A DNA stretch of 64,000 nt from a virus. Taxonomy: Duplodnaviria > Caudoviricetes. The stretch spans positions 1,450 through 65,449 of IMG/VR virus record IMGVR_UViG_3300020465_000014. One strand, given 5' to 3'. Below, piece after piece: positions 231 to 63,988 of the stretch. A program made the position numbers and the translations under genes. The stretch's first letter is position 1, and every line of letters starts with the position of its first letter. Under the pieces are notes generated by a model that saw nothing but the letters and a program-made list of their open reading frames with translations, was not told where the DNA came from and searched no databases.

Positions 231-446
231 TTATCTTACTGCCCTTTTCACACTACACAACACGCTTCTGCGTTTAGTCCTTAACGAAAAAACATCTTTT
301 CTGATGATGGCTTGCTTTGCCTTTTGACCGCATATCGAACATCGGTCTATTCCTTCTGAATCTGGAATCCAACCTTCAGGATAGTCAGTAAATACATGGA
401 TAGTTTTGAAATCATCTCGGTTGGTAAAATAGATCGTCATATTCAT
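231..446 (-). CDS. Small CxxC-containing hypothetical protein
   Basis: ORF track; ATGA overlap with upstream 443-616 ORF. Confidence 0.55.
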   Translation of the reverse strand: MNMTIYFTNRDDFKTIHVFTDYPEGWIPDSEGIDRCSICGQKAKQAIIRKDVFSLRTKRRSVLCSVKRAVR

Positions 447-616
447 CGACCCCTTACAGGGCCAACCAAAACTCTGTAATTCCCATTCTTTTTCGATACC
501 CTGACCTTTCGATTAGTCCTTCTAATGACTTGTGCATGACGGTCAGCCAACCTCTTGTCTGCAGTAGTAATACGTAGGAAATATCTCTCGCCGTTTATGG
601 TGAAGACATCTGCCAT
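443..616 (-). CDS. Stand-alone basic SPOR-like tag protein, 57 aa (absent from ORF track)
   Basis: MADVFTINGERYFLRITTADKRLADRHAQVIRRTNRKVRVSKKNGNYRVLVGPVRGR; ATTAAAGG TATA-like box upstream; stop overlaps next ATG. Confidence 0.8.
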   Translation of the reverse strand: MADVFTINGERYFLRITTADKRLADRHAQVIRRTNRKVRVSKKNGNYRVLVGPVRGR

Positions 617-665
617 GAAAAGACGATTCAGGAACTTGCCTTTAATCTCTTACCCTTCTACCCCC

Positions 666-1052
666 TCAAAATGGGATATTCGGGATTCCACGTTTGTAAA
701 TTAACTGCATCAAATGAATGGTGAATATCGCAGAACCAATGAACCCAATTATTCCCTCATCCAAAGAATAACCTCGAAGGATAATCCATCCCGCACCGAT
801 GAATGCGATAACATCAGTCAGAATGTTTGCTGTGTAAGAACGGTTATCGTCTGCATTCTTCAATTCACTAAGCATAAAATATCCGAGACCCAGGAAGATT
901 CCAGCAAATAAAAAAGTCACAAAGTTTCCTTCTTGTAATTCTAAAAGTGAATCCTCTGGAATATATTGAAAGGCGAAAATCAGTAATGCAATAGGGAGTA
1001 GCAAAAATACGGTGCTAAATTGTTGTAAAAAACTCTCTTCTTCAGCCATCAC
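666..1052 (-). CDS. Small membrane protein (~4 TM)
   Basis: Four hydrophobic segments; coupled to upstream gene. Confidence 0.75.
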   Translation of the reverse strand: MMAEEESFLQQFSTVFLLLPIALLIFAFQYIPEDSLLELQEGNFVTFLFAGIFLGLGYFMLSELKNADDNRSYTANILTDVIAFIGAGWIILRGYSLDEGIIGFIGSAIFTIHLMQLIYKRGIPNIPF

Positions 1053-3022
1053 ATACCGCCTCCATCTTCTCGAACTGCGTTGAATAGATCCATGCCAGCG
1101 CCAGTATTGTCTGTAATCATCATTTCATCTCCCCATCGTTGAGAAGAAGCGCCTAAAGCATCAATCAAAGCCAACCTGTCGTCATTGTCCATCGTGCCTA
1201 AAGCCTGAATAGTTCCGTCTTGGGCGCTCATCTGCAAAGCAATGAATGTATTACCTAACGAGGAACGGTCAGGAGGGGATGCAATGATTCGACCATTTCT
1301 CAAATCAATTAACCCCATCCTGGTATCTGATTGGATTCTGATAATGTGATTTTCTAAGCCGTCATTCTGGTTCTTTGGATATACAATAAAATCCTGTGGC
1401 TTACGCATTGAACCTGCTTTCAAATCAAATGAGATTGTCCCCATTATGTTTCGCCTAAATGAACCAAACTCAGGCATCTTCTTGCGGTCATATCGGTTGT
1501 CCACTACAAGCACGTATTCTTCATCAGGCAAACCGCCTTCTTCAACTGCTTGTAATGCTTCAACCGCACTCATGCCTTTTTTTCCAACCTTTACTGTATC
1601 AAGGTAATCGCCAGTTTGTTTAGAATAGACCTCAATTAACCAATTACGGCGCTTTCCACCCACTTTACCAGGCATTTTTTTGTCTCTCCTTCTCCTTCTC
1701 TCTTCGATTGCACGTATTCTATCAATATCAGTCATAATATTTTCAAAATTAGGTTCAAAACCTTCATCATACACTTCCTTGTAATACGTCACATCAGAAC
1801 CAATGGTTATTCCTGGCATCTCTTTGTTTGTATCATCGTCCCTGCCGTCTTTGTTAAGATCTATTGGTTGAATAGTTGAAGATGATGGGCTGATTGCATA
1901 GAAGTATGTTTTTCTGAACTTAGCTCTATCATCTAATTCCGCATAGATTTTTTCTGCATCCTCGACTGAACTACGTTCAATGTCTTTCAGAAGTATTGCG
2001 GTTTCCTCATCGAACTTGAGTATATCATTGAACTTAGCAATTTGTTTTGGAGTCATTAAATCCAGCACGTCAGAAAGGTCGAAATCATCAGAGTTTATGT
2101 TGATGTCTTCATCAACAATCTTCCTCATCTGCTTATCAGTCAGAAGTCGGAATGCGATATTCATTGGTGCATATTCTCTCTCTTCAAAACCTACTGGCAT
2201 TGCCATACTACCGCCCATCAAAGTTCCAATGTTTGCTTTGTCTGGAAATCGACCAGGTTCTTCGAGTTCATCTCTGACTCGGCTGGCTGGCGTAGTTTCC
2301 CAAATTACATTCCCATCTCCTTCAAGATCGTATTCCTGGATAAAAATTCCAAAGTCAGGGTCATTTAGTTTCGACAAAGCCTCGCCCATATCCAGGACTT
2401 CGCCTTTGTTTCCACTTGGAATTACCAATTCAGGGTCTTGCCAACCGTTATCATCATCTAAATGCAATTGCAGTTCGTATTCTGGATTTTCCAGTAAAAC
2501 CTTAGCCAGTTGTCTTTCAGCACTTGCCGCCGTATTAGCATATCCGAATGCCCTGGAATTGTTTAGGGTGTCGTATAGCGACCACAATTCACTATTTGTA
2601 GCACCATTCCTCCTCAAACGCAAGAACTCTTTTCCCCATACGCCTAATTTCTGATTTTTTGGTATTTTGTCTGTATCGATTCTTAGGACTTCTTTGCCAT
2701 CGTATGTCTTACGCATAATTTTTGCATTGTATCTTCGCTTGCTCTTGGTTGTCGATTGGAATATACCGTATCTTCCTCCACGTAAAGGAATCACTCTTGC
2801 ATTATATCCGTTTGAACGGACAATCCTTGCCATAGAATCTGCAGTTGTTTTGTTGCCGACTCCAGCGATCTGAAATCTTTGGCCGTCAAATCTTCGAGAC
2901 CCTCCATTTCTGAATCTGTAATTGTATCTGTTGTTGTAGCTCTTTCTGCGCTTGGCCTGGCAGTTGGCACAATTGCATGGTCGACCATCTTTCATCATGT
3001 TTTTACAGCCACAAGAACCCAT
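1049..3022 (-). CDS. Tagged protein: Cys-rich N-terminus, basic tag, acidic multi-domain body
   Basis: CGC...CNCANC then RRFDGQRF...ADSMARIVRSNGYNARVIPLRGGRYGIF. Confidence 0.85.
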   Translation of the reverse strand: MGSCGCKNMMKDGRPCNCANCQAKRRKSYNNRYNYRFRNGGSRRFDGQRFQIAGVGNKTTADSMARIVRSNGYNARVIPLRGGRYGIFQSTTKSKRRYNAKIMRKTYDGKEVLRIDTDKIPKNQKLGVWGKEFLRLRRNGATNSELWSLYDTLNNSRAFGYANTAASAERQLAKVLLENPEYELQLHLDDDNGWQDPELVIPSGNKGEVLDMGEALSKLNDPDFGIFIQEYDLEGDGNVIWETTPASRVRDELEEPGRFPDKANIGTLMGGSMAMPVGFEEREYAPMNIAFRLLTDKQMRKIVDEDININSDDFDLSDVLDLMTPKQIAKFNDILKFDEETAILLKDIERSSVEDAEKIYAELDDRAKFRKTYFYAISPSSSTIQPIDLNKDGRDDDTNKEMPGITIGSDVTYYKEVYDEGFEPNFENIMTDIDRIRAIEERRRRRDKKMPGKVGGKRRNWLIEVYSKQTGDYLDTVKVGKKGMSAVEALQAVEEGGLPDEEYVLVVDNRYDRKKMPEFGSFRRNIMGTISFDLKAGSMRKPQDFIVYPKNQNDGLENHIIRIQSDTRMGLIDLRNGRIIASPPDRSSLGNTFIALQMSAQDGTIQALGTMDNDDRLALIDALGASSQRWGDEMMITDNTGAGMDLFNAVREDGGGM

Positions 3023-3023
3023 T

Positions 3024-4535
3024 TTATCGCCCCCGCCTCATCATCTTTTGTCCGAGTTGCGTTTGAAATTGCTTTTTTGTAATGTTGACCTTTTTTGGCT
3101 TTTCATACACAACATATCTGCCGTTAGAAAATGGGCCAACAACTCTTGCCTGGTGGACTCCTCCTCCCGCCTTCTTTGTTCGAATATTATTGGCTACTGA
3201 TTGAGCCTTTGATTTACTCATCCAGGCTTCGCTTTTTCCACCAGCGACTCTGCCCGAATTGGATGAGCCAGGATATTGATTCCAGATTCTCCAAAGGTTA
3301 TTGTCGATGAAGCGAATGTCTGATGCGCCCCTGTGCATTCCGACTCTCTTATTGAAACGCTTTGCCATACCTTGATGTGGTTTTATTTCACCTTTGAGCC
3401 TTTTCCGTAGTTCAAACAAAGATGCACTCTTTTTCCTATCATCTTCTCGCCTGAACCTTCTGTCCATTGGATCGTTTTCTCCACTTCCTCGATAACCTCC
3501 TTCGTCTTCTTCGAGATACGTTGGCATTACTTCGCCCGTCTTTTTGTTTGTGCCATAATGCGACTTTAACCAACCTGGCGCATCCCACATGAAGACATCA
3601 CTTATCGGCGTATCAACAGTATCGCACCAAACGCAATACCCCTCGCAATCGAGAGGCGGTGCTGATTGCTGGATTTGTGGGTCACAAAACCTTCCGCCAA
3701 TATATCGACTTCCGCCCCTGCTTATTGCATACGCACCCTCGCCGTCATATTCGAAGGTATCTTTGTAATCTTCGAGAACGTCAAAAACTGGCCTTTCACT
3801 ATCCCTTGTCCTGGCTGTATTTCTGCCAATTTCTCTTTTTCTAAGACCTCCTGAACGTGACTTTTGCCTTGCCTTCTTGAATAGTTCAATCTCCATCCAA
3901 ATATCCTTTGAAATAACGTCTGTGTCCTCCTCGCTTACAAACCAGGTGTCGCCATCTTTCCAGCGCACCATCATATCTATGCCACCCATGTTCAAAACTC
4001 TCGGAAGATCTGTTGTAATCAAAAACGGCGGGTCAGGAAGATTATTCCATTCCTTCATCATCATTCTGTAATCGCCATAGCGTTCAGCAAAATATTCTGT
4101 CCTGTTTGGGTTCTTGCGTTGAACATTAAGTTTCCATCGGTCTGTAAGAAGACCGAGTTCTTCTGCTACTTCGAGCATTTTGTCGTCCCAGGATTGAACC
4201 TGTTGCTTTAGTTCGTATCGCAAGTGATGTGGAGTTGAGATCGGAGAAAAATACTCGTTGAAATCAGATTTTAGGTATCTGTCCACGCTTAACCCATTTT
4301 GCTCAAGTTCCGATTTGAAAGAGCTATCATTTTCTAAAGCGGAATAGATTTGAGCCAATCCTTCAGGTGTGAATATTAGTTCAGCATTCTCTCGAATGTG
4401 CCTTTGCCCCTTCCCTGTTTCTAATCCATAAGGAGGAAATACCGAATGATAGTTGCCTTCATAGTTGTAAATTGCTTCTTCAACCATGCTGTTAGCCATT
4501 CTGACTTCGGAATCATTGATGTCTGGAAACTCCAT
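3024..4535 (-). CDS. Tagged protein (C-terminal tag), acidic body with Cys cluster
   Basis: IRFIDNNLW...SKSKAQSVANNIRTKKAGGGVHQARVVGPFSNGRYVVY; ATG 4535 follows GGTG SD. Confidence 0.85.
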   Translation of the reverse strand: MEFPDINDSEVRMANSMVEEAIYNYEGNYHSVFPPYGLETGKGQRHIRENAELIFTPEGLAQIYSALENDSSFKSELEQNGLSVDRYLKSDFNEYFSPISTPHHLRYELKQQVQSWDDKMLEVAEELGLLTDRWKLNVQRKNPNRTEYFAERYGDYRMMMKEWNNLPDPPFLITTDLPRVLNMGGIDMMVRWKDGDTWFVSEEDTDVISKDIWMEIELFKKARQKSRSGGLRKREIGRNTARTRDSERPVFDVLEDYKDTFEYDGEGAYAISRGGSRYIGGRFCDPQIQQSAPPLDCEGYCVWCDTVDTPISDVFMWDAPGWLKSHYGTNKKTGEVMPTYLEEDEGGYRGSGENDPMDRRFRREDDRKKSASLFELRKRLKGEIKPHQGMAKRFNKRVGMHRGASDIRFIDNNLWRIWNQYPGSSNSGRVAGGKSEAWMSKSKAQSVANNIRTKKAGGGVHQARVVGPFSNGRYVVYEKPKKVNITKKQFQTQLGQKMMRRGR

Positions 4536-4544
4536 AGAATGCAC

Positions 4545-6740
4545 CTACTGGCGCTTTCTGTTTGGGCCAACATAAACTCCGAATTTGCCACTTCCGAGTC
4601 GCTTTACTCTCGCCGTTTTACCAGAACGTCTTGCTAAACGAGCAAGTGCATCAGCACTTCTTCGGTTGAATCTGTATCTGTCCTTCGAGCCAATAATTGA
4701 AAATCTCCGCCCGTTAATGTTCCTGGCATAGTCAGAAATATTCCTGGCAAAAGTTGTAGTCGCCATCTTCTTTTTCAAACCACCAATTGTCGATGCTTTA
4801 GGAGTTGCTAATGGAGATGCGACAACGGATGCTCGACCAACCCATGAAGGACGGCCACCAGGGAAAACAGGAGTTCTTCCTAATCCGTATTTTGGAGGAA
4901 TAGCGCCAACCCCGATTAGATCTTCTCTATTCCATCTTTCATCTCTTGTAATATCTGGAAATAGACCTCTTTCAATGGCGAAATCTTCTCTCCAGGTGAC
5001 GATTAGTTCATGTGGCGCTGGCCCTCCTTCTCTGCCATCAATTCTTGAAACATATTTGAAATTCTCAATGGCTTCGCTTGGAATCAAACCTCCAGCGCCC
5101 GATCTAATCCACTTTTCGACCCATTCCTTATCATTCTGGTATCGAATATCATCAACTAATTCATCGGGTATTTCAGTCCCTAATTTGGCCTGTGCTGTTT
5201 CCAAAAATAACTTCTGTTGCTGTTCCTTTTTCATTTTGGCTTCTTGTCTCGCCTTCTCTGCTCTTTCAGCACGTTCCTTTGCTTCAGCATCTCTTTTTGC
5301 TTGAAGTTCAGCCATCTTCTTGATACGCTCTTTTTCAACTTCAGGGTCAACCTTCTTTGTTGCCGCAACAGCACCAGTCAAAACCCTTAGTTTGCGTTCT
5401 TCTTCTTCAAGCTCTCTTTTCAAAGCCTCAATTTCATCATTTGTTTCAGGGTCAGTTACCGAAGTTAACTCAACAATTCCAGATTGTCTCTGCTTTGCTG
5501 TTATGTCCAGGGTAGGTATGATTTGATTCGGCTTCATTGGATAGAGTTCGACTATTTTCCCGTCTAATCCAACGGCTCTAAACCCATTTACCATATTTCC
5601 TGTGCCATCATCAATCTTGGTTTTCTCCTGGCGAGCATAATCGCCTTTCGAGTTTTTCATTTTGAACTCTTCATCGGTATAGATCCTGTCGTTTTTTGCA
5701 TCATACCAATATTTCTGAATGACCTTCTTTGGCCTTACGAATCCAGCACCGTAATAATCCGAATCTCTCTTTTTGCTTCGAGGGTCGGCAACGAAATTAG
5801 CGGCATTGTATTCAATACCAAAAGGCAACCAACCAGTCCGCCCAGGATTCAAAGTCAAATCTGATTTTTGGTAAGCCCTGAATAGTGGGCCATTACGTGC
5901 AAAATCTCTTCGAAGCAAATCCTTCTGCACTTCTTTATCCTCTGCAGACATAGAACCAAATTGTGATTCATATTGATACCAAACCGTATCGGCAAGTTCC
6001 ATTGAAGCATTGAATATACGTCCGACTAAACTCTTTTCCTTTTTCCTGACTCCATCGACTGCGAGAGCTGTTCCAGCAACAATGCCGCCAACAACTCCGC
6101 CTTCAAGAAGGCCAAACTCTCCATCTTCGTTTAGATCCCACCACTCATAACTCTCTTCAGTCGAAGAATCAGTAGTAGTAGTCGGCTCTCTTATTTCTCC
6201 GCCGTATCGGTCTGGATTGGTTAGTGAAGGCGGCGCTTCGGGTTGAAAAGAAGGGGGCAAAGGAGTATTTGGTGGATTAGGGACAATAGGTGGGCCAGTA
6301 ACAGTCCCGCCTCCGCCTGGCTGTGGGCCAGCAGGGGGATTTGGCGTGATAGGGTCAGGCGTGATTGGAGGAACAGTATCTCCGCCTCCTCCGCCTGGTG
6401 GAAGCGGTTTCAAACCATCAGTTCCTCCGCCACCAATTACACCGCCACCAAAGCCGCCTCCAGGGTTAAGTGTTGAAATTGTATTACCAATTGTTGAACC
6501 TCCTCCAGAAGCAAAGGGATCGAAAATGAGGGGTGCTGTATCAACACCGATAATCTCGTTTCCTATTGATTGGTATTCTCTAATGTTGGATTTTTTACGT
6601 TCTTTGATTTCATGGTTATCTGGTTGTCTCAAACCGTTGAGATATTTCCTGGCATCTCTCTTCGAAGTAAAGCGTTTCATAATCTTGCCAGTTGATTTAT
6701 TCCTGACTTCAAATCGAAACCTTGTCTGCCCCTTAGCCAT
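4545..6740 (-). CDS. Tagged protein with Pro/Gly-rich linker, DxNxDG loop, hydrophobic segment, coiled coil and C-terminal tag
   Basis: PG-rich tract; DLNEDGE; RNINGRRF...ADALARLARRSGKTARVKRLGSGKFGVYVGP. Confidence 0.85.
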   Translation of the reverse strand: MAKGQTRFRFEVRNKSTGKIMKRFTSKRDARKYLNGLRQPDNHEIKERKKSNIREYQSIGNEIIGVDTAPLIFDPFASGGGSTIGNTISTLNPGGGFGGGVIGGGGTDGLKPLPPGGGGGDTVPPITPDPITPNPPAGPQPGGGGTVTGPPIVPNPPNTPLPPSFQPEAPPSLTNPDRYGGEIREPTTTTDSSTEESYEWWDLNEDGEFGLLEGGVVGGIVAGTALAVDGVRKKEKSLVGRIFNASMELADTVWYQYESQFGSMSAEDKEVQKDLLRRDFARNGPLFRAYQKSDLTLNPGRTGWLPFGIEYNAANFVADPRSKKRDSDYYGAGFVRPKKVIQKYWYDAKNDRIYTDEEFKMKNSKGDYARQEKTKIDDGTGNMVNGFRAVGLDGKIVELYPMKPNQIIPTLDITAKQRQSGIVELTSVTDPETNDEIEALKRELEEEERKLRVLTGAVAATKKVDPEVEKERIKKMAELQAKRDAEAKERAERAEKARQEAKMKKEQQQKLFLETAQAKLGTEIPDELVDDIRYQNDKEWVEKWIRSGAGGLIPSEAIENFKYVSRIDGREGGPAPHELIVTWREDFAIERGLFPDITRDERWNREDLIGVGAIPPKYGLGRTPVFPGGRPSWVGRASVVASPLATPKASTIGGLKKKMATTTFARNISDYARNINGRRFSIIGSKDRYRFNRRSADALARLARRSGKTARVKRLGSGKFGVYVGPNRKRQ

Positions 6741-6744
6741 TCAT

Positions 6745-7386
6745 TCACCACCCCGTAGTAGGGTCGCCATCGAAGTCGGCACTTGAAATTCCATATCCAG
6801 CCGCCCCTCCAGCCAAAGCACCTGCGGCACAACCAGCACCAACTGCCGTCCAACCCACAACGGGAATCCACGAAACCAATGCAAACGTAGCCGCACCGCC
6901 AGCACAACCTACCGCCGCACCCGCTAATGCACCTTCACCATCAGTCAAATATCCGTCTGCAGGTGGGCCATAATTGCCGTAGCCGTATGGTTGCACCTCC
7001 TCATAAAGAACGTAATTTTCTGGAACTTGTAGGCTACCGTAATATCTAATTTCATCAGGGTCTTGCACCAATCCGAATACATTTGTTTGTAATGCAATGA
7101 CTCCTAAAATTAGTGCGACAACGGTTAGAGGAAATCCATATCCGCCCTCGAATACATCATCATCTCCGACATCATCAGAACCCCAATAGATCGCCAATGC
7201 TACCGCACCTACGATTAGCACTACAAGTAAAACCGATGTCCATTCTAATATCCCCCAATCGGGAATCGAGAACGATATATCAAACTGAGAGAAAATCAAA
7301 ACTCCAAAAATTATAGCTAATGCTGAAAGACCAATGATGCCTACAGTAATTGCTTCACCATCTGTAAACTCGTTATCATCTACCAC
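6745..7386 (-). CDS. Membrane protein with three TM segments and C-terminal glycine-zipper hairpin
   Basis: GALAGAAVGCAGGAA...WIPVVGW...GALAGGAAGYG. Confidence 0.8.
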   Translation of the reverse strand: MVDDNEFTDGEAITVGIIGLSALAIIFGVLIFSQFDISFSIPDWGILEWTSVLLVVLIVGAVALAIYWGSDDVGDDDVFEGGYGFPLTVVALILGVIALQTNVFGLVQDPDEIRYYGSLQVPENYVLYEEVQPYGYGNYGPPADGYLTDGEGALAGAAVGCAGGAATFALVSWIPVVGWTAVGAGCAAGALAGGAAGYGISSADFDGDPTTGW

Positions 7387-7691
7387 TTTTCACCATCTCC
7401 TATTATGCCTAATTCGACTCCCCAAAAATAGAAAATTGCACCACCTTGAGCAATAATTAGCCAAAACCATACCCATTCATCATTTTCACCTGCACGTTGC
7501 ACACTAACAGCAACGACAATCAGTTGTGCTACAATCAACGGGATAAGGAAGCCGACTACAATTAGAAAACTAAGTGCGCCTTCAATATCTCCGACTTCTT
7601 CACCGTCAAACTGCAACACAAAAATTACTATCGATACGAGGGAGATGGCATACAATACCAGAACTGAACGTGCCGTATTAGAAAGAGCCAT
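7380..7691 (-). CDS. Small 3-TM membrane protein
   Basis: Hydrophobic segments; first gene after a boxed promoter. Confidence 0.75.
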   Translation of the reverse strand: MALSNTARSVLVLYAISLVSIVIFVLQFDGEEVGDIEGALSFLIVVGFLIPLIVAQLIVVAVSVQRAGENDEWVWFWLIIAQGGAIFYFWGVELGIIGDGEKW

Positions 7692-7743
7692 GTTGGTTAA
7701 GACATCTCCTTCTGCTTTTCATGGTTGCCATTGAATTGACGTT

Positions 7744-7755
7744 AGTTGCACCCTT
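7744..7755 (-). promoter_or_regulatory. Upstream box, 10/12 match (AGTTGCACCCTT on + strand), 53 bp before ATG 7691
   Basis: Same distance to the start codon as the exact copies. Confidence 0.6.
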
Positions 7756-7763
7756 TTACAGCC

Positions 7764-9602
7764 CTATTTTTTACGCCCACCAACATAAACGCCATGACCC
7801 CTTTTGACTGGAATGACTCTTGCATTGAATCCTTTACTCCTTACGATCTGTGCAAATCTCTTTGCTTGATTTTTATTTTGAGACAATCCTCTAAGCAAAA
7901 AATCCTGGTGCGAGATTCTCCTACGATATACCCTTCTCCCGCTTTCCCTGGTTTGAATCATAGGATTCGAAAGCATCCTCTCTTTCCATAGGTTGCGCCT
8001 GATTGGGTCATTACGGCTTCGCTTAACTCCGATATTGGATCTCCTTGCTTTCATTTTTTTGTCCTTTACCACTTCATCAGAAACCGAGTCCAATACGCTA
8101 TTGATAATATTCTCCTCGTAATAGCCTGTTGCGAAACCTAATTTTCGAAGACGGTCTAAATCTTGGTCTTCAACTGCAGATTCGACCTCCTCCATTGCCG
8201 AGTTTACATCTTCTGTAATCTCCCCAAAGTCAAAGTCAAGAATTTGCTCTCCAAAGTCAGATAGTGCGCCTTCCATTTCAGCGACTATGATATTGTTTAG
8301 CATTGTGGGGTTATTCACCACCCATTGTAGTAAATCAGGTTCAGAATAAATCTGTTTCATTAGGGCATCAGCACCCTCCCAATCTGAAAAAGTCCTTTCC
8401 AACCAGCCCAAAGCACCAGGTTGCGTTGATTCAAGAATTGCATCGACTCTTTGCTGTTCAAAACCGCTTCTTTCTGCGGTTTGCATCGGTATCGGGTCAA
8501 GTATTCTGAAAGCACGTCCTGACGACAACAAATCTTTTTGATTCTGACCCCCTTTATGCCAATTAGAAAATATGTCCATGTTAGCTACAATTAGTTGTTC
8601 ATTTGTCGTCATTAGGTTTCTTGAAAAATTAGCGATCTTATCCGCCAATCCAGAATCAAAAGCATCAGGGTCAGGTGTTCCAAACTCGTTATTGATTTCG
8701 ACTTTGTGTTGCTCTATACCGTCTGATGTGTTGACGAATAATGAACCCGCTTCTCTGTTTGAGCCTACCTCCTGGAACAGTATCATAACCCCTTTTGCAC
8801 TTCTTGCTGAACCTAATCGACTCGACCCTTCCATCTCAACATTCCAATCATCACCCTTTATTGCGAAAACGTCCCAATCTGAATTATCGAGATTTACTGT
8901 ATCTCTCCAAAGCACAATCTGTCCACTCTTGAGATTTACATTTCGATCTTGATTGAACCTGCGTAAAAATTCCATATCATCCATAGTCGCAATCATTTCT
9001 CCTTCGTCTGTTGATTCCAGAGTTACTCCTCGAAATGGGTCGTTGCTACTGAAATCACTCCAACGGGAATCGTATTCTCTTCGAGAAGTCACATCATCTT
9101 GTAGCTCTCTCTCCAATCGTTCCTTTTCCTCATTCGCCTCCCGAAGCAATCTGCGTTTTTCAGCAATCACTTCATCAAGTGCCGTTCTTACTGCTTGCGT
9201 GGTTCTTCTTCTTTGCATTTCTGACCTGCCATTATTCCAATGCGGGTCAGCAGTTCTCCATACGGGAATAGGTGCGGCGTTCCTCCTTACGCTCGGAACG
9301 GTTCGATTCGTTTTTGCTATTGTCCCACGTCTTGCCGCCCTGGATAAGATCGGGCCGAGAACTCTTCTATTTTCAACAGGTTCAAGCAAACCGTTCTCAA
9401 TGTTGTTATCCAGGACGTTCCATACATCGTCTGCAGTAAACTCTCTTCGAGTAGCGGCCAAAATGTCGATGAGATAATCAACTCGGCCTCCTTCTTGCCA
9501 TTCCACGTCTAAATCCTGGCGTTGCTCTGCACGTTCCTCTCCCAAACGGCCTCTTTCTCTTGCTTGGCGTTCTTCATCATCGTTTGGTGGGCGATTTATC
9601 AT
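7764..9602 (-). CDS. Tagged protein: N-terminal winged-helix-like domain, acidic body, C-terminal tag
   Basis: FTADDVW...RVLGPILSRAARRG...PVW; NKNQAKRFAQIVRSKGFNARVIPVKRGHGVYVGG. Confidence 0.85.
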   Translation of the reverse strand: MINRPPNDDEERQARERGRLGEERAEQRQDLDVEWQEGGRVDYLIDILAATRREFTADDVWNVLDNNIENGLLEPVENRRVLGPILSRAARRGTIAKTNRTVPSVRRNAAPIPVWRTADPHWNNGRSEMQRRRTTQAVRTALDEVIAEKRRLLREANEEKERLERELQDDVTSRREYDSRWSDFSSNDPFRGVTLESTDEGEMIATMDDMEFLRRFNQDRNVNLKSGQIVLWRDTVNLDNSDWDVFAIKGDDWNVEMEGSSRLGSARSAKGVMILFQEVGSNREAGSLFVNTSDGIEQHKVEINNEFGTPDPDAFDSGLADKIANFSRNLMTTNEQLIVANMDIFSNWHKGGQNQKDLLSSGRAFRILDPIPMQTAERSGFEQQRVDAILESTQPGALGWLERTFSDWEGADALMKQIYSEPDLLQWVVNNPTMLNNIIVAEMEGALSDFGEQILDFDFGEITEDVNSAMEEVESAVEDQDLDRLRKLGFATGYYEENIINSVLDSVSDEVVKDKKMKARRSNIGVKRSRNDPIRRNLWKERMLSNPMIQTRESGRRVYRRRISHQDFLLRGLSQNKNQAKRFAQIVRSKGFNARVIPVKRGHGVYVGGRKK

Positions 9603-9694
9603 TTCATTCACCCTCCTCGAAAATGCTACTTGCAGATTTTGGCAAATATACCCCTTCTACCCCTACCTTTGCGTGGACGGTTTTTTTCGAAATA

Positions 9695-12547: not shown

Positions 12548-12560
12548 AATTTATGCCTCC

Positions 12561-13838
12561 TCACTTTTTACGCTTCTTTTTTCGCTTATCTCGCTTCTTC
12601 TGAATCTTCTCGATCTCCACGTCAACAGTAGTATTTCGTTTAATTGCGAGTTTTTCTGCCTTGCGTAAATCGGCTCTGTCTTGCTTCCGTTGTAATTTCT
12701 CTTTCTGTTCCTGAACTCTTACTGCAGAAGGCTTGATTGGTTTGACTCTCTTTGGTTCTCGAAGAAGTCCCAAACTCCAAATTGCAGGTTGTCCTTTATC
12801 CTTTGAAACAATCAATGAGTCGATAACTTCAGGGTTTTTGACCGATTCTAAACCTGCGTTGACTGTGCGCTTTAGTTGCGGCACGTTTCGAATAACTTTG
12901 GCCGATGCGAGACCTAACAGCATTGCGAGAGGAATGAAACCTGCTGATGCTACACTTGTGGCGGCAAGTGCGCCACCTGCGAGAAGTCCTGTTGAAGTGG
13001 TTGCGATCTCCAGCGAATTGTATTTCACAAGTGTATCAAGAGGAACTCCAGCGTCATAATTTGCTTTGGCCTGTTGATATTCCTTCGCTTCGAGTTTTGT
13101 TTTCAATTCGGACTGTCTTTTTTGTGCCGCCTCGATTCGCTTATCTCTTAATTCTGATTCGGCACGTAATGCACGATTCGCTTGAGCCTCTTTCATGGCT
13201 TTGGCGACTACTTCTGGACTATCATAACCTGCCCTTCCGCCGTATTTAATCACCAAATCGTTGAAATCTTGAGCCTCTATTGCATCTTCTTGCTCTTTTT
13301 TCGTCAGCAATCCCGCATTGGGTTTCTTAGCTCTCCTAAGTGTAAATCTCTTCTTCTTTTTTGTTGGAGTAGGATTCCTCGCCATTTCTGCTCTCTGCAG
13401 TAAGGTCATGCTTGCCATTTCTGAATTGAATATTCTTCGAAACTTCTTGGATTCGCCTTCCAGAATCACCCAATCTCCCTTGCCTTTCCGTTCAATGACT
13501 CTTGCGTTCCGCCCATTCTCTCTTGCTCTTTGGGCGATTCTTTTTGCCGTTTGCTGACTCTTTACGGGCGAATGCCTTTGAATCATCAATTTGCCATCAA
13601 TGGTTCTCATTACTGGCGCTTCAGAATCTCTCCTGGAAGGATCTAACCCTGCTAATCTTGTTGCCTCGTTTGCGCCAAATCCAACCTGAAGGTAAATCAT
13701 ACGTTCTCGTTGTCGGTCTCTTGGCTGACCTTCCATTCTTTCTGAATCTATGAGTTTTTCAGCCAGGTCTCTTCGAGTCCTGTATTCATTTCGAAGGCGG
13801 GTCGTTTGGCGGGATGGGCCAGTTCTTCGCTTCGCCAT
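12561..13838 (-). CDS. Basic tagged protein with hydrophobic Gly/Ala segment and coiled coils
   Basis: RTIDGK...AKRIAQRARENGRNARVIERKG; start moved to ATG 13838 from promoter spacing. Confidence 0.85.
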   Translation of the reverse strand: MAKRRTGPSRQTTRLRNEYRTRRDLAEKLIDSERMEGQPRDRQRERMIYLQVGFGANEATRLAGLDPSRRDSEAPVMRTIDGKLMIQRHSPVKSQQTAKRIAQRARENGRNARVIERKGKGDWVILEGESKKFRRIFNSEMASMTLLQRAEMARNPTPTKKKKRFTLRRAKKPNAGLLTKKEQEDAIEAQDFNDLVIKYGGRAGYDSPEVVAKAMKEAQANRALRAESELRDKRIEAAQKRQSELKTKLEAKEYQQAKANYDAGVPLDTLVKYNSLEIATTSTGLLAGGALAATSVASAGFIPLAMLLGLASAKVIRNVPQLKRTVNAGLESVKNPEVIDSLIVSKDKGQPAIWSLGLLREPKRVKPIKPSAVRVQEQKEKLQRKQDRADLRKAEKLAIKRNTTVDVEIEKIQKKRDKRKKKRKK

Positions 13839-13860
13839 ACTATGCAACCCTATTCAACTA

Positions 13861-13901
13861 CTTATGAAAAGAACGGGTAAACTTCACCAACAAACACACT
13901 T
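13861..13901 (-). promoter_or_regulatory. Promoter: TATA-like TTCATAAG plus degenerate upstream box (13890-13901)
   Basis: TATGAA-nn-GAACGGGT shared with the 39675 promoter; CACACTT core in a box starting 52 bp from ATG. Confidence 0.6.
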
Positions 13902-13914
13902 TACAAGGGTCATT

Positions 13915-16347: not shown

Positions 16348-16348
16348 A

Positions 16349-29673: not shown

Positions 29674-29674
29674 T

Positions 29675-45555: not shown

Positions 45556-45935
45556 AGATGTCTTTTGATTCAGAATACAAACCGCCACTACAACCTCCTG
45601 ATTGGGTATTTGGGCCAGTATGGACATTTCTCTATGCCACTTTAGCAATTAGCATATTTTGGACTTGGAGAGATCGAGCAGAAATTGAAAACTCAAACCT
45701 TCTGATAGGTGCTTTTGCATTACAAATGCTTCTCAATTTGACTTGGACTTACGCTTTTAATTCAGAAAGATACGTCTTATCAACGCTTATGCTCTTTGGA
45801 ATGGTAGCTCTAACCAGTTATTACGCATACGGACTTTATTCGTTTAACCAACTTGCTTCAGTTATTGTTTGGCCTTACATTGCATGGGTAACATTTGCCA
45901 GCATTCTCAACATCTTCTATCTGGTGGAGGCTTGA
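45552..45935 (+). CDS. tspO: TspO/MBR family protein lacking TM1
   Basis: KPPLQPPDWVFGPVWTFLY, QMLLNLTW, PYIAWVTFASILN. Confidence 0.85.
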   Translation: MKMSFDSEYKPPLQPPDWVFGPVWTFLYATLAISIFWTWRDRAEIENSNLLIGAFALQMLLNLTWTYAFNSERYVLSTLMLFGMVALTSYYAYGLYSFNQLASVIVWPYIAWVTFASILNIFYLVEA

Positions 45936-55694: not shown

Positions 55695-55696
55695 CT

Positions 55697-59061: not shown

Positions 59062-61443
59062 TCATTGAATGTTAAAACGCTTTTTGTAATCAGCAATCGA
59101 TGCAGATTTAGTGGACTTATTCCAAAGTATGAACCTGGATAAAGCACCTGCTGAAGTAGGGTCATTCCAGTTCTCATTTACTTGATGTCGCTTGAGATAA
59201 TTGCGCTTTCTAATCGGGTCATTGTGCAGGGTATAGTCAGAATATCCTCTGCCACCAAAATGTGTTGTCTTCTTCGAACCATCATCAAAGGTAAAAACTG
59301 CCTTCATTTTTTTCGAATCCAAATTGGAAGTTGAAAATTGAACGTCTGCGATCTCTTTCCTTTTCATGTATATTGGGAAAATCTTTGGCTTCTTCTTCTT
59401 GCCATCCAAAATCCTACGCCTCCGTCCTTTGGACATATCGCTGATAGGCCATTTTATTTTGCCAGCCTTTGTGAATCCTGGTGAACGCCAAGATGTCGAA
59501 AGGCGAATTGGCCTTGTTAATGGCGATTCCATATCCAAATTATTTTCCTTCGATTTGTAGTTCGAATCTAATTCTGTCTTAGGCCAGCCAAAGTTCAAAT
59601 TATCGACATCGAATCCAGCATTCCATGCTTTATTCCAGATTGGGTCTTTACCTCGTCTTCCGTAAATAACACGGGTTCGCAAATTTTCGTCTTTGGCTTT
59701 GCTGAAATCAAAGGAAACATAGACGGCCTCGTAATCTTTGAAACTTAGAACTCTTGCACGAAGTTTGACTCCATCAGCGTCAGAACCTTTTGGGAATCGA
59801 ATAGCTCTAATTTGTTCAGCATAGTCCTTTGCGGCCTTTCTCCTATCAATTAAGCCCAAATTAGGGTCAGTAATCGCATTGATTGTGTAAGGCGTATATG
59901 TCTTCTTTCCCTTAGTTTGGGTTTCAAATAAACGAGTTCTCAAAGGACTTCTTCCAGGTCGCAATAGATCCTTTGCTCTTTTCTCATTTTCTCGAACCAT
60001 GTCTTCAAACGTCTTTGAATTGTTGGAGTCCTTGTCTGAAATCCAGCGCCCTTTTTTGTTGTCCCACTTTAGCAATTTAGCCTGTTCAGCACCCTTCCGT
60101 TTGAGAAAAAATGCTGGTGGCGGTAGCACCAGGTTTCTATCGAAAAATTGTTCAGCATTGAAATCTTCACCAACATAAACAGCGTCTTCATTTACTCCAT
60201 TGTTTTCAAGTATTTCCTGTCTCCTTTTCAGAGATTCTTCTAATCTTGTAATCAAGGCAATGTGCATCGGAGATCCTAATTCAAACGATTTTTCATCCCA
60301 ATCCTTGTAATCTTGCCACCACCACTTGCCGTCAATATCCTTAGATGGCAAGTATTTGCGAGTATCGAAATCTCCCTCATAACTCTGCAGTTTCATTGCT
60401 TCCAACAAAACAGGAATCTCTTTTTGTAATTCATCAAGTTCTTGTTTTCTGGAGTTTATTTCATACCAATCTGCAGAAGCCCTTGAAGTATCAATCAATT
60501 CATTGGTATTATCAGTAATTTTTCTGCGTGAAAATCCCTTTCCGCCACGTCCAGAAGTAGGCGAATCCAAAGAACCCGTATAATCGTCATTGAGAGCCTC
60601 TTGTATTCTCATTCGTAAAGGCTCGTCAACATCGACTGGATTACCCATGCGATCTGTAAAAATTAGATTATCCCCTCGATATAGGCTTCTTCTTTTGCCA
60701 TTGGGTTCTCCTTTGGTCTTTCCCGATTCAATCCCATTTCTGTATCTTACTCCGATTTCCAGTCCTTCATCATCCAACCAGACATCTTCCATCTCAACTC
60801 GAATATCGGCATTTGCCAATATCTCAAATCCTTCTTTTGCGATTTTTTGTTTTTCGAATCGACTTCCACCTTTTTGAGTTTGATTTTCAATCCATTCATT
60901 GAGTTCAGTATCAGACAACTTGCGAAGATATGGTTGCCTTCTAAGTCCTTCGTTAGCCAAAGCATCTGCGGCTTCGGCAAGCAATCTTGCATTTTCTGCC
61001 TTTTTCCGTAAATCTTCAATATCGTATGCAGATGCAATTTGCTGTTCTAAACTTAGGTTTCCTTCGACATCGACATTTCTAACCCATTTGACTCGAACAC
61101 TTTGCTGAACACTACCCCTCAAAGGAACATCAAGGTATCTTGAGCCTTTTTTACGGACTGGATATTTTATTTTACGTTCTAATTGTTGTGCAACGTATCG
61201 AGGGTCGAATCTATCTCTAAACTCAGGTTTAATTCTGACCGCTATGAAGTTTCTCGGCAGATCGTCAAGTTCCATAGAAGAATCATATTGGAATACTCTG
61301 CCACCAATACGGACAATTATTGCATCTCCATCTTGTAGCTCTTTCTTCGGTTTAGTTGCCGCCCTCTCTCTGGAAGTTCTTGCCGCCGCACCTGTCCAAA
61401 TGACTTCATCTTGCCAAACTTCGGCAATATCGTTCAACTTCAT
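59062..61443 (-). CDS. Chimeric protein: HsdS-TRD-like N-terminus, internal divergent tag, C-terminal DUF5754-like domain
   Basis: MKLNDIAEV...GDAIIVRIG...DPRYV...GSVQQSV...LSLEQQ; AAKDYAEQIR...RARVL...AVYV; THFGGRGYSDYT...YLKRH...SAGALSRFILW. Confidence 0.7.
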   Translation of the reverse strand: MKLNDIAEVWQDEVIWTGAAARTSRERAATKPKKELQDGDAIIVRIGGRVFQYDSSMELDDLPRNFIAVRIKPEFRDRFDPRYVAQQLERKIKYPVRKKGSRYLDVPLRGSVQQSVRVKWVRNVDVEGNLSLEQQIASAYDIEDLRKKAENARLLAEAADALANEGLRRQPYLRKLSDTELNEWIENQTQKGGSRFEKQKIAKEGFEILANADIRVEMEDVWLDDEGLEIGVRYRNGIESGKTKGEPNGKRRSLYRGDNLIFTDRMGNPVDVDEPLRMRIQEALNDDYTGSLDSPTSGRGGKGFSRRKITDNTNELIDTSRASADWYEINSRKQELDELQKEIPVLLEAMKLQSYEGDFDTRKYLPSKDIDGKWWWQDYKDWDEKSFELGSPMHIALITRLEESLKRRQEILENNGVNEDAVYVGEDFNAEQFFDRNLVLPPPAFFLKRKGAEQAKLLKWDNKKGRWISDKDSNNSKTFEDMVRENEKRAKDLLRPGRSPLRTRLFETQTKGKKTYTPYTINAITDPNLGLIDRRKAAKDYAEQIRAIRFPKGSDADGVKLRARVLSFKDYEAVYVSFDFSKAKDENLRTRVIYGRRGKDPIWNKAWNAGFDVDNLNFGWPKTELDSNYKSKENNLDMESPLTRPIRLSTSWRSPGFTKAGKIKWPISDMSKGRRRRILDGKKKKPKIFPIYMKRKEIADVQFSTSNLDSKKMKAVFTFDDGSKKTTHFGGRGYSDYTLHNDPIRKRNYLKRHQVNENWNDPTSAGALSRFILWNKSTKSASIADYKKRFNIQ

Positions 61444-61868
61444 ACATAGTCACCAAATGAAATGTAGTCCAGGACAACCCAATATGCCAAAGAGAAAAAC
61501 AACGGTATCGAGCCGAGTATGATGTAGGGTTCAATGCTTTCCTCCAGGTCGGAGAAATCTATTCCAGCGAAAAGGCCAAACAAAGGTAATGCCGAAGTAA
61601 GAAGACAAACAGTAATCCAACCAATGCCTGAAGCAATTGTATTGTAATCCACGTTAAACAATTCTTGAATTGTAGTAATGGTAGCGAAACCGATCAAAGC
61701 GACAATAATTGGTATGACTATGAAAACAACAATTGCCTCTCCACCAGATAACGCATTGTCGTTATTTGTAAAAATAGAGATGGCAAGGAACATAACTGCA
61801 GTCAGAAAAGTTCCAGACAAAAACGCTCTAAGCAAATTACGATACATTCTTTCGAAAATTGTCGTCAT
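61440..61868 (-). CDS. 4-TM membrane protein
   Basis: Hydrophobic segments; ATGA coupling on both sides. Confidence 0.75.
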   Translation of the reverse strand: MTTIFERMYRNLLRAFLSGTFLTAVMFLAISIFTNNDNALSGGEAIVVFIVIPIIVALIGFATITTIQELFNVDYNTIASGIGWITVCLLTSALPLFGLFAGIDFSDLEESIEPYIILGSIPLFFSLAYWVVLDYISFGDYV

Positions 61869-63988
61869 AATCTCATTCTCCTGTTTCCAATGTATATTCC
61901 ATGACCGCCTGTTTTGGTGTGAATGACCCTGGCGTTGAATCCCCTTCTTCGAATAGCATTAGCAAAGGCTCTTGCCTGGTTCTTTGAATGAGAAGCGGCT
62001 AAACGCCTGTAATACGTCTTGTCGATTCTTCTTGACTGAAGCGCACGTTGTAATCTCCTGGTGTATGGAGGGTTTCCATCTTTGTCTAACAAGTCAGGTC
62101 TCGGCCTCAAATAAGCGGCATGACGAGGCTTTCCAGAGTTTGTCCTTCCCAGGTATGAGTATTCGACCATCGTATTCTTTGCTGGAGGCTTTTCTCTATC
62201 TGCATCAGTCAATCCAGCACCGAGTTTGAAGGTTTGACCGTCTCTCATTTTGATAATCAAAGAGCCAACTTTACCCTCATTTCGATTCAATCCCTCCTCA
62301 TATCCGACAACCAAACCATCTTCGTCTTTGGCCTTTTTCAATTTCTTCAGAGAACTTGTGCGAGTAGCTTGATATTGTGAATCTGGATCTCTAATCATAG
62401 CACCTTCGCCATCCAAAGTATCGATAATGAAATCTCTAAACTCTGTGAAAAAGGCTTGAGTATAGTCGCCATCCTCTCCATCTTTTGTTTTTTCAGGCGC
62501 AGTTCCAAACTCATAGATGCCACCGTTATATTCAATTGAATCGTATATTGGTATGTCCACGTTCTTGTAAGTTGGAAAATTAGAGAATACAGGTGAATAT
62601 TGTTTAGCAAGAGTAATTATTGGTCGGTCTTGAGTTTCATAATCATCTCCAAACGTAATTCCATTTTCAGCATCTCTCGCCCAAACATCAGCATCAAAAT
62701 CAGTCATGCTGATTTTCCAATTAACCCCATCATCCGATACCTGCCAACCAATCTTCTTCGCCATCGAAGCCTTCTGCCTCCAATTCTTCTTCTTCCAATA
62801 AGATTTAGCGTATTTTTCGTAATCTTCAAGCAATTTCCAAACTGGCGGAACTTTGTTGCTTCCGTAGGTTTGCTTGATGAATTGAGGATGAAGACGTAGC
62901 ATTTCATCAATGGTCTGCGCTCTCGTTAGGGATTTTGCCTTCTTTCCATCTTTGGTAGTCCTATCCAATGTTGCATACGGATATGCAAGGATTAGTTCAT
63001 GTCCAGGATAAGTCAAATCATTGCCGCCAATCATAGCGGCGAGTTTGTAGTAAACATCTTCGAATGTTCCAGCGCCGTATGATTCATCGTATAGATCTGG
63101 AGAATCAAAAACAACGTAGGTTATTTTCTCCCATCGGTCAGCGTCATAATTTTTTGATTCCTTCCTGGTTCTTACTATGCTGTTTGCTTCTTCGAGTTTG
63201 TTGCGACCTACAAACAACTCGCCGTCAAGAGCTATCTTTGGTAATTCTCTTGTGAACCATTCTGGTGCATCAACATCTTCTCCGTTTTTTGTGACGAACT
63301 TTTTACCATCCCATACTGCTCTAAGACCATCAAATTTTTCTGAAATCCACCAGTCACCTTCTTTGAATTTGCCTTCTGCCTTAATCTGTTCTAAGAACTT
63401 GGGTGCGGTGGCCTTGCCTTTCATAATTCTCGGCTGTTCTGGAGTAGTTTCTCGCAATTTTTTCTGACGATCTGCTTTGGATTTACTTCTTTTCGAATCG
63501 AACATACTGCCCTCTGCAGTATATCCCTTGTTGTTTTTCTCAAGCCATTTTTTACGAGCAAATGCTACTGCTTCAGCCTTTGATTTGAACATCTTGTCTT
63601 GCTCTCTCAAGTTTGAACCTGTTTTGCCATAATTGATTCTAACCATCCAGGGAATACCCAAAGACGGTGCAGATGCAATCAACCTTATTCTGTATTCTTT
63701 GTCGGATTTTGCGTCTTTGTAAGTCAACCTGGGTAGATCGTGACTGTCGCCTCTCTTCATTCCAGTAGGGACATCGAGCAAGCCATCATTAAATGCCTTA
63801 GCGACCGCAGGAACTTCTCTCGCATCATTCCATTTTTGAACCGCATCAAGAAGCCAGGCTTTGTTTTTATTTGTGTTTTTCAGAATAGGTTTGTTAGCCA
63901 TTGGGCCTCGATTTCCATAAGTGATTTTGTTTTCAACAACGTAATCAATCAACTGCTTTCTCGTCATTTTTTCGAAGTTATCACTCAT
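61865..63988 (-). CDS. lig: ATP-dependent DNA ligase with WGR-like domain, large internal insertion and C-terminal tag
   Basis: EKFDG (motif I), LDGEL, VFD, EGAMIR, KLK and OB domain; YGKTG...KNNKGY WGR-like pattern. Confidence 0.9.
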   Translation of the reverse strand: MSDNFEKMTRKQLIDYVVENKITYGNRGPMANKPILKNTNKNKAWLLDAVQKWNDAREVPAVAKAFNDGLLDVPTGMKRGDSHDLPRLTYKDAKSDKEYRIRLIASAPSLGIPWMVRINYGKTGSNLREQDKMFKSKAEAVAFARKKWLEKNNKGYTAEGSMFDSKRSKSKADRQKKLRETTPEQPRIMKGKATAPKFLEQIKAEGKFKEGDWWISEKFDGLRAVWDGKKFVTKNGEDVDAPEWFTRELPKIALDGELFVGRNKLEEANSIVRTRKESKNYDADRWEKITYVVFDSPDLYDESYGAGTFEDVYYKLAAMIGGNDLTYPGHELILAYPYATLDRTTKDGKKAKSLTRAQTIDEMLRLHPQFIKQTYGSNKVPPVWKLLEDYEKYAKSYWKKKNWRQKASMAKKIGWQVSDDGVNWKISMTDFDADVWARDAENGITFGDDYETQDRPIITLAKQYSPVFSNFPTYKNVDIPIYDSIEYNGGIYEFGTAPEKTKDGEDGDYTQAFFTEFRDFIIDTLDGEGAMIRDPDSQYQATRTSSLKKLKKAKDEDGLVVGYEEGLNRNEGKVGSLIIKMRDGQTFKLGAGLTDADREKPPAKNTMVEYSYLGRTNSGKPRHAAYLRPRPDLLDKDGNPPYTRRLQRALQSRRIDKTYYRRLAASHSKNQARAFANAIRRRGFNARVIHTKTGGHGIYIGNRRMRL
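61887..61951. repeat. 65-bp dispersed repeat (tag-coding), copy 2
   Basis: 61/65 identical to 29516-29580. Confidence 0.9.

Follow-up and report, generated by a model that had tools for sequence, protein, structure and literature searches.

We analysed a 64,000-nucleotide stretch of a marine virus genome, referred to here as the window, and found that about a third of the viral proteome carries one copy each of a shared, basic domain of about 55 residues, which we call the tag. The tag sits at either end of unrelated proteins, is confined to one gene module and appears, by sequence comparison, to be a remote and shortened SPOR-like domain that stands outside the SPOR family (PF05036). Our preferred, though tentative, explanation is that it serves as a common intracellular docking module to the viral DNA or nucleoprotein core, by which the tagged proteins would be gathered and probably enclosed in the particle. 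The window covers bases 1450-65449 of the 65,449-bp IMG/VR record IMGVR_UViG_3300020465_000014 (64.0 of 65.4 kb), which is classed as complete, and is the near-entire genome of a marine virus, as yet uncultured, that infects a prokaryote. Direct terminal repeats, measured at 77 bp, bound the record; GC content stays at 41-45% along the whole window, and the minus strand carries most genes. Shine-Dalgarno motifs of the GGAGG type precede many starts and genes overlap by a few bases, which identifies the host as a prokaryote.

The initial annotation of this DNA had described a module of ~50-60 amino acids (aa) recurring across the window and had listed 21 copies. A first profile was built from 14 copies, all lying in long coding frames and picked because their helix-strand core fitted a loose regular expression, and was searched against 719 six-frame open reading frames (ORFs, named here by their low coordinate in the window). 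It recovered copies that were not among its seeds, in ORFs 23699 (E 6.4e-12), 20421 (E 5.2e-7), 19972 (E 5.5e-5) and 16349 (E 4.3e-4), was weak on ORFs 3024 (E 0.024) and 17221 (E 0.79), and after one iteration returned 18 copies at E <= 4e-14. A second, broad profile drew on 165 domains taken from 150 metagenome proteins, mostly external, with a few from this genome itself (such as P0002 and P0009, 100% identity). Of the 492 six-frame ORFs in the entire genome it matched 22 at E <= 2.6e-4, and it lifted ORFs 3024 and 17221 to E 1e-5 and 2.6e-4, respectively. The next-best matches were ORF 59062 (E 0.12, at open-frame residues 513-580) and ORF 40046-40324 (E 0.2). Twenty of the 22 copies lie in the window and two in the 1.4 kb outside it. 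The ORFs of these two, at genome bases 65-802 and 756-1301, are located after the terminal repeat and ahead of the window, so that the tagged block reaches the genome end. The tagged share of the proteome is therefore 22 of roughly 65 proteins.

Against the earlier list, the recurrent module is borne out, with 20 of the 21 copies significant by profile; the internal copy in ORF 59062 is only plausible, as its match stays below threshold. Placement also agrees: 13 tags are N-terminal, six are C-terminal, one stands alone and one may be internal, with the qualification that the tags of ORFs 12561 and 13915 begin at about residue 72-76 and that of ORF 49952 stops 33 residues before the C-terminus. 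The small genes at 39.8-42.8 kb and 51-59 kb, described as tag-free, gave no match at E < 0.1. Twenty residue shuffles of all 492 ORFs produced no match at E < 0.01 (best 0.082), and neither did 20 composition-keeping shuffles of the 22 tags alone (best 0.19); because shuffled controls yield no match, the signal does not come from Arg/Lys composition. Profile scans of the genome and of metagenomes thus define a significant family that goes beyond a bias toward these two residues.

The tag is conserved in three stretches, R-x-[FI]-[DNG]-G-x-x-[YF], K-x-x-A-x-x-x-A-x-x-h-R-x-x-G-x-[NK]-[AV]-R-[VI]-[VI] and G-[YW]-x-[VI]-[YF]. The arginine at profile position 33 and that at position 40 are both retained, each in 98% of the 165 domains, and in the same profile the strands bear conserved aromatic residues. 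Net charge of the tag runs from +4 to +17 over 20 copies, and the remainder of the carrier is net negative in 13 of 19 fused copies, down to -49. With tags masked, 30 proteins compared all-against-all by BLASTP formed no pair at E <= 1e-3, and the domains recognised by Pfam in the carriers are likewise unrelated, as the initial annotation had supposed: TusA (E 2.7e-19), DUF3860 (E 3.8e-9), DUF5754 (E 3.5e-13), GP88 (E 1.6e-47) and, in ORF 61865-63988, a DNA-ligase OB domain (E 1.6e-19) together with WGR (E 5.7e-5). The heliorhodopsin carrier matched PF18761 at E 2.5e-70 over aa 111-361, which is nearly the full model (positions 1-241 of 242), and had 255 relatives at E <= 1e-20. Among relatives of this carrier domain, cellular heliorhodopsins are ~250-280 aa long and lack the extension of ~105 residues, confirming that some carriers are normally stand-alone proteins; about 20 heliorhodopsin clusters of 358-394 aa, found on contigs of 59-71 kb, have the extension. 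Table S8 of PMC8612252 lists ten unnamed N-terminal heliorhodopsin extensions, and the tag extension may be among them.

AlphaFold2 was run on the 57-aa stand-alone protein with 18 window copies as the alignment. The model has the topology beta-beta-alpha-beta-beta (strands 4-7, 10-18, 36-43 and 46-54, with a single helix at 21-32), with a predicted local distance difference test score (pLDDT) of 92.5 and a predicted template modelling score (pTM) of 0.74. A distant two-copy protein, P0008, which is ~25-30% identical to its alignment partners, repeated the same topology twice (pLDDT 86.9, pTM 0.51); as the pTM was only 0.51, its two copies would be independent beads with no fixed mutual packing. 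Together, the high score on a gene that encodes only the domain and the repetition in P0008 predict an autonomous folded domain of ~55 residues, in line with the shared fold that had been proposed. Prediction of a homodimer of two tag copies scored 0.00, which gives no verdict and is evidence neither way.

Structure searches placed this model close to background. Foldseek against PDB and BFVD found nothing at E <= 1e-3; the best rows were LAGLIDADG half-domains (I-DmoI and I-Tsp061I, E 0.028, template modelling score (TM) 0.57-0.62), and the SPOR domain of CwlC (1x60) came in at E 0.13 and TM 0.64. VIA-align put designed mini-proteins on top (Z 6.1 and 5.8), with I-Tsp061I at Z 5.8 over 56 residues and the SPOR rows at Z 4.9 for RlpA (6i0n; root-mean-square deviation 2.8, 48 residues aligned) and Z 4.7 for CwlC 1x60; Z scores under 8 may reflect merely a common arrangement, and the SPOR rows rank among unrelated ones. 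A tag-profile sequence search of PDB gave nothing meaningful; its best result, at E 0.0036, was a designed Rossmann protein that matched along 26 residues of helix and strand. The LAGLIDADG homing-endonuclease half-domain, whose sheet forms a DNA-binding saddle, shares the beta-beta-alpha-beta-beta sheet with the tag as a matter of topology only: the tag has neither the LAGLIDADG helix nor the catalytic residues, and the scores fall within the background range of the tool.

The initial annotation had likened the tag to half of a SPOR domain. Among Pfam families, SPOR alone was matched by two or more tag copies, at E <= 1 in four of 18 window tags and at E <= 0.01 in 14 of 83 stand-alone relatives (best E 3.5e-6), and the 57-aa protein scored 18.8 bits (E 0.0021) where the gathering score is 21. 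A scan of the virus's own genome gave five SPOR sites at 12.6-18.4 bits (E 1.5e-4 to 9e-3 per genome), with the highest score in the ligase tag and none above 21 bits, and all of these matches map to model positions ~3-52 of 76. Apart from such weak sub-threshold matches, no Pfam or PHROGs family covers the tag; a PHROGs search with 18 tags assigned one member to phrog_930 at E 0.0041 and found nothing otherwise. The likeness lies in a helix-then-hairpin core, which reads K..A...A..hR..G.NARVh...YxVY in the tag and A..l...L...Gy.a.v...yrV.vG in SPOR. When the DNA pattern for RxxGYNARVVK was searched in 185,579 species genomes, it occurred in three places, two of which are true Bacteroidales SPOR domains that carry the motif at the same helix-strand junction as the tag. 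An hhalign comparison of tags with five SPOR domains reached 85% probability, a value that depends on the two rows chosen by this pattern, and against three independently found SPOR domains it gave 1-5%. In the reverse direction, the tag profile matched SPOR in one of 41 Bacteroidales genomes (E <= 1e-3), namely in the pattern-chosen protein.

SPOR-domain proteins include FtsN and DamX, and the tag differs from this family in several respects. The full SPOR fold has ~76 residues, four strands and two helices, whereas the modelled tag has ~55 residues and one helix; the alpha2-beta4 part of SPOR (its second helix and final strand) is missing from it, and at the N-terminus it has an additional strand, which in the model plausibly takes the place of the lost SPOR strand in the sheet. 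Unlike SPOR, the tag is strongly basic with invariant arginines, lies on the cytoplasmic side rather than in an extracytoplasmic place beside peptidoglycan, and reaches 24 copies in a 65-kb virus genome. The resemblance therefore stands as a remote one, in which a strand-helix-hairpin core is preserved, but family membership does not.

The location of the tag was deduced from the carriers. In the window, 13 tags begin no further than ~20-76 residues from the N-terminus, and in the C-tagged proteins the N-terminal sequence is hydrophilic; since N-termini are either filled by tags or hydrophilic, no signal peptide is possible on the tagged proteins. Passages of PMC8612252 put the N-terminal end of heliorhodopsin on the cytoplasmic side and limit heliorhodopsins to monoderms. 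As the tag occupies this N-terminus and signal peptides are absent, it faces the cytoplasm, which makes wall binding of the canonical SPOR kind unlikely. Tagging also followed a module rule. Module counts rest on a list of longest-frame ORFs in the window that we chose ourselves and not by a gene caller; on this list, 18 of 22 ORFs at 443-30676 were tagged and the four untagged ones were polytopic membrane proteins by Kyte-Doolittle analysis, as opposed to none of 18 ORFs at 51-59 kb, which include helix-turn-helix and Zn-finger candidates. Two giant proteins that adjoin the tagged block, with a signal sequence and multi-pass anchors, are also untagged. Together, the cytoplasmic side and the module rule point to an intracellular docking role for the soluble products of one module.

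Comparison with two complete relatives (G001 and G002), in which the ATPase-like protein is 64% identical to that of this genome, showed the tag to be portable. The relatives have 23-24 (G001) and 15-16 (G002) tags, and in most orthologues the tag is at the same end: in all three genomes GP88 and ligase bear it at the C-terminus, the TusA protein is N-tagged in both genomes that have it, and the orthologues are N-tagged for ORF 12561 (in G001 and G002) and C-tagged for ORF 16349. ORF 1049 departs from this pattern, with its tag at residues 7-88 and that of its syntenic, reciprocal-best G001 orthologue at 508-576, despite which the carriers align at E 9e-9. The orthologue of ORF 4545 is C-tagged in G001 and profile-negative in G002. 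DUF5754 is found behind an N-terminal tag in a 163-aa protein in G001, is untagged in G002 and ends a 793-aa protein here. We also noted that the G001 heliorhodopsin (L011 bases 2-1009) gave no profile match and by eye has a degenerate, acidic remnant of a tag.

Two further observations concern descent. The tags of the ligase and of ORF 28546, 32 kb apart, are ~93% identical over their last ~70 nt and ~55% identical upstream, which indicates recent gene conversion. The orthologous tag was the best match in seven of 22 orthologue pairs, including GP88 (59% identity) and ORF 19972 (in both relatives); this is far above chance, and as it holds in only seven pairs, simple co-divergence of tag and carrier does not describe many of the tags. 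From these alignments the tag is independent of the end it occupies and evolutionarily mobile. The position independence claimed initially thus holds up in the opposite ends of the ORF 1049 pair and in the shared 70-nt stretch, and in the comparison of orthologues for tag gain or loss, which had been suggested as a check, the exceptions are the ORF 1049 end switch, the profile-negative ORF 4545 orthologue and the tagged and untagged forms of DUF5754.

The 18-copy profile matched 1,250 of 1.84 billion representative metagenome proteins at E <= 1e-3, for the most part stand-alone forms of 50-100 aa. Of the best 150 relatives, 84 were at most 100 aa long, 25 were of 100-250 aa and 41 were longer; 14 had two or three tag copies, often with Lys-rich linkers. 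Among the same 150, 42 of the 52 proteins of >150 aa were kin of this clade's carriers, so long tagged proteins are mainly a trait of the marine clade and small stand-alone forms the widespread ones. Pfam found no informative partner domain in 10 long tagged proteins from outside the clade. A 57-aa orthologue of the stand-alone tag, P0021, is 91% identical and lies on a 63.9-kb contig.

Signals for the host conflict, in that the heliorhodopsin (22528-23625) points to Actinomycetota and the ATPase-like protein (47769-49148) to Thermoplasmatota. The nearest named cellular heliorhodopsins, at 45-47% identity, belong to Acidimicrobiia and other Actinomycetota. For the ATPase-like core protein, most of the nearest ESM-Atlas clusters come from Thermoplasmatota, and some of its clusters carry the Zot family at a score of 0.94-0.95; both are leads only. 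Among 20 clusters looked up, one stand-alone tag relative was named, apart from a few labelled as hypothetical proteins, from a metagenome-assembled genome of a Methanosarcinales archaeon (2.7-kb contig), and relatives of TspO gave no informative names for host inference. On balance, we consider an archaeal host, of the Thermoplasmatota, just more likely than not.

In the docking explanation that we prefer, the tag would stay inside the cell or particle and would tether unrelated, mostly acidic soluble proteins, together with two membrane proteins, to one shared polyanionic partner. This partner would most likely be the viral DNA or a nucleoprotein core at the assembly site; we infer a nucleic acid from the charge and the invariant arginines of the tag, from its fusion to a ligase and from tandem forms that are histone-like. 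Several observations weigh against this explanation. Most carriers are strongly acidic, which opposes DNA binding by the whole protein; Foldseek and VIA-align gave no structural match to a known nucleic-acid binder above background; a particle role of the tagged block is suggested only by its position next to the two giant membrane-anchored proteins; capsid, portal and terminase families were not recognised in the scans of window ORFs; and two tagged proteins are membrane-bound, with which a membrane or matrix partner is equally compatible. A bolder form, which we consider possible but unlikely, would make the tag the loading principle of a capsid-poor, membrane-bounded virus: a SPOR-derived DNA-binding mini-domain turned inward would hold a third of the proteome (light sensor, ligase and many orphans) on the genome, this cargo and the genome would be enclosed and co-delivered, and further cargo would be gained by mere recombination of the tag onto one or the other gene end.

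The same basic charge and the two near-invariant arginines would also suit a generic nucleic-acid-binding domain that works in the infected cell, in replication or takeover on viral or host DNA or RNA, and is not necessarily packaged. Fusion to a DNA ligase that also bears WGR, the dominance of stand-alone and Lys-linker tandem forms in the wider family, and metatranscriptomic contigs on 28 of 30 bins of window 1-20000 (where DNA carry-over is possible) are in its favour; tagging, however, tracks the gene module (18 of 22 ORFs, including the heliorhodopsin, as opposed to 0 of 18 at 51-59 kb) and not DNA-related function, and most carriers have no recognisable nucleic-acid enzyme domain, which leads us to regard it as rather unlikely. 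We are more doubtful still of a protein-protein or membrane-proximal module, which would bind a viral scaffold or matrix, perhaps with the 57-aa protein, or the anionic inner leaflet, where it would form a layer beneath the envelope. The tagged block ends with a gene for a stand-alone copy, the untagged genes of the block all encode polytopic membrane proteins that would need no such anchor, the heliorhodopsin and the ORF 12561 product are membrane proteins tagged on the cytoplasmic side, and the strands have conserved aromatics, all as this reading would have it. P0008, by contrast, was modelled as a pair of independent beads and gives no sign that tags pack against each other, a partner protein was not identified, and a strong, variable charge (+4 to +17) suits a polyanion better than a specific protein interface.

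Very improbable, in our view, is a functional SPOR-type wall or glycan binder that anchors released or exported viral proteins to the envelope of a walled monoderm host such as a marine actinobacterium. It would account for SPOR being the sole Pfam family with repeated matches (4 of 18 tags, 14 of 83 stand-alone relatives and five genome sites), for the SPOR structures among the VIA-align rows (6i0n and 1x60) and for the actinomycetotal affinity of the nearest named cellular heliorhodopsins, but it conflicts with a heliorhodopsin tag on an N-terminus that PMC8612252 places in the cytoplasm. It also conflicts with the lack of signal peptides on all tagged proteins, 13 of which have the tag itself at the N-terminus, with genome SPOR matches that all stay below gathering and within positions ~3-52 of 76, and with the poor reciprocal detection (1 of 41 Bacteroidales genomes; hhalign 1-5% with three SPOR domains). 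Least credible of all is that there is no portable module, and that the copies are either a compositional artefact of protein ends rich in Arg and Lys or an end that stayed conserved while a single paralogous family diverged. Tags are rich in these residues and those of the adjacent genes 23699 and 25668 are very similar, but the 20 + 20 composition-keeping trials without a match, the lack of BLASTP similarity between masked carriers with unrelated domains (heliorhodopsin, GP88, TusA, ligase and DUF3860) and a tag that is found at either end, and in ORF 1049 switches ends between orthologues, contradict it.

Individual copies in the window lie on the minus strand, with the exception of the GP88 tag. 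The stand-alone tag occupies 449-616 of ORF 443-616 (profile E 1.2e-20). C-terminal tags were found at 3087-3365 in ORF 3024-4544, where the tag bears an insertion (E 0.014-0.024 with the window profile and 1e-5 with the broad profile); at 4554-4739 in ORF 4545-6740 (E 1.6e-17); at 7767-7937 in ORF 7764-9611 (E 1.2e-20; Pfam SPOR 14.9 bits); at 16367-16543 in ORF 16349-17224 (E 4.3e-4 as a non-seed copy, 3.7e-15 after iteration); at 50735-50926, plus strand, in the GP88-family ORF 49952-51028 (E 1e-17); and at 61874-62047 in ORF 61865-63988, the ATP-dependent DNA ligase with WGR (E 1e-22). N-terminal tags begin with 2741-2911 in ORF 1049-3022, a 657-aa protein without a Pfam family (E 6.7e-21), and 12344-12523 in ORF 9695-12547, which has DUF3860 near its C-terminus (E 1.2e-18). 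The tags of ORF 12561-13847 (13443-13622, aa 76-135, E 2.7e-19) and of the TusA-domain ORF 13915-16347 (15934-16134, aa 72-138, E 1.3e-19) are near-N-terminal; the former protein has one hydrophobic segment, at aa 292-314. A divergent copy at 18994-19191 in ORF 17221-19239 is the weakest that was accepted (E 0.79, 0.0024 and, with the broad profile, 2.6e-4).

The remaining N-terminal tags are at 20239-20418 in ORF 19972-20421 (149 aa; non-seed E 5.5e-5), 22335-22508 in ORF 20421-22517 (non-seed E 5.2e-7), 23452-23625 in the heliorhodopsin ORF 22528-23625 (E 5.5e-18), 25457-25651 in ORF 23699-25597 (non-seed E 6.4e-12), 27285-27473 in ORF 25668-27482 (E 5.2e-19), 28337-28540 in ORF 27479-28546, where the beta2-alpha loop is long (E 6.1e-20), 29503-29676 in ORF 28546-29709 (E 1.4e-21) and 30461-30661 in ORF 29675-30676 (E 1.3e-16). 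The possible diverged internal copy of ORF 59062-61443 lies at 59710-59913, upstream of DUF5754 (E 0.12). Untagged polytopic membrane proteins within the block are encoded at 666-1052 (minus strand), 6745-7386, 7380-7691 and 19236-19889, each with 2-4 hydrophobic segments. The tag of ORF 23699 starts upstream of the first ATG, GTG or TTG (25598-25663, minus strand), in an open frame of 23702-25663 that opens right after a TGA and begins 4 nt beyond the stop of ORF 25668, in a different frame. The first tag strand precedes the called ATG and could be made only from a non-canonical start (ATT or ATC) or if there is a frameshift or an error in the assembly.

Little else in the genome was recognised. 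Pfam and PHROGs scans of 60 window ORFs yielded the heliorhodopsin, TusA, GP88, DUF3860, DUF5754, the ligase with WGR, DUF6884, DUF932 and a TspO/MBR-like protein, and the same 60 ORFs contained no capsid, portal, terminase or polymerase family and, in the Pfam scans, no protease family. A search for tRNA genes found none, tblastn of the ATPase-like protein and the stand-alone tag P0022 gave no match in 50,697 GenBank phage records, and PDB sequence searches with the ATPase-like protein and ORF 41557 returned nothing. The TspO/MBR-like membrane protein (45552-45935; 125-127 aa, Pfam E 7.5e-26) is clade-wide and sits in the best-conserved gene module, and its cellular relatives are 150-180 aa long and only 35-41% identical. 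Between the tagged block and a giant protein, 30678-30995 encodes a 105-aa protein of net charge +22 that is 41-50% identical in both relatives and is not recognised by the tag profile.

Within the largest non-coding stretch, (TAC)8 and (TAC)9 runs enclose a 19-bp AT-rich spacer (41255-41324), with several tiny Cys-x-x-Cys ORFs nearby; this may be a replication or regulatory site. The two giant membrane proteins and the heliorhodopsin each have a AAGTGTGCATCT box ~55-60 nt upstream (39708, 35649 and 23682, minus strand), and a GGGGTAGAAGGG box lies ahead of ORFs 443 and 7764 (617-665 and 9612-9694); neither resembles the sigma-70 consensus. At 39-59 kb, neither sigma-70-like promoters (37 vs 42.4 +/- 7.3) nor intrinsic terminators (13 vs 17.5 +/- 4.3) were enriched. 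The metatranscriptomic contigs that cover window 1-20000 come from two marine libraries of one sample and match at >=99% identity; they were available as assembled contigs only, their cover may stem from DNA carry-over, and one has an extra T or TT after position 3090.

With the terms used, literature searches returned no paper on the tag or on the virus clade, in keeping with the initial annotation's remark that it knew of no described system of this kind. One parallel is phage T4, in which the capsid-targeting signal is a short N-terminal peptide that the prohead protease removes. T4 internal proteins likewise share one signal on unrelated proteins, which here would bring cargo into the particle, but the tag is a folded domain of ~55 aa at either end rather than a short peptide at the N-terminus only, and the Pfam scans of window ORFs recognised no protease. 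The C-terminal domain of type IX secretion and the LysM, SLH and choline-binding anchors act outside the bacterial cytoplasmic membrane. Like the tag, these are folded, portable address domains on many unrelated cargos; the tag, in contrast, is viral, intracellular, basic and found at either terminus, and the others have other folds. The tag appears to be an unnamed remote derivative of SPOR that is used in a new way, and the interpretation given in the initial annotation is supported in part.

If the docking explanation is true, a wall-binding fold has been reused inside the cell. As an address, the tag would provide a simple and evolvable rule for which proteins travel with the viral genome, and this rule would be readable from sequence across a clade of abundant, uncharacterised marine viruses. 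The tag could also serve as a handle for predicting particle content and for fishing for the host. The family is large (1,250 representative clusters) and is unnamed in Pfam and PHROGs, and knowing what one protein of 57 residues binds would thus give thousands of dark viral genes an annotation.

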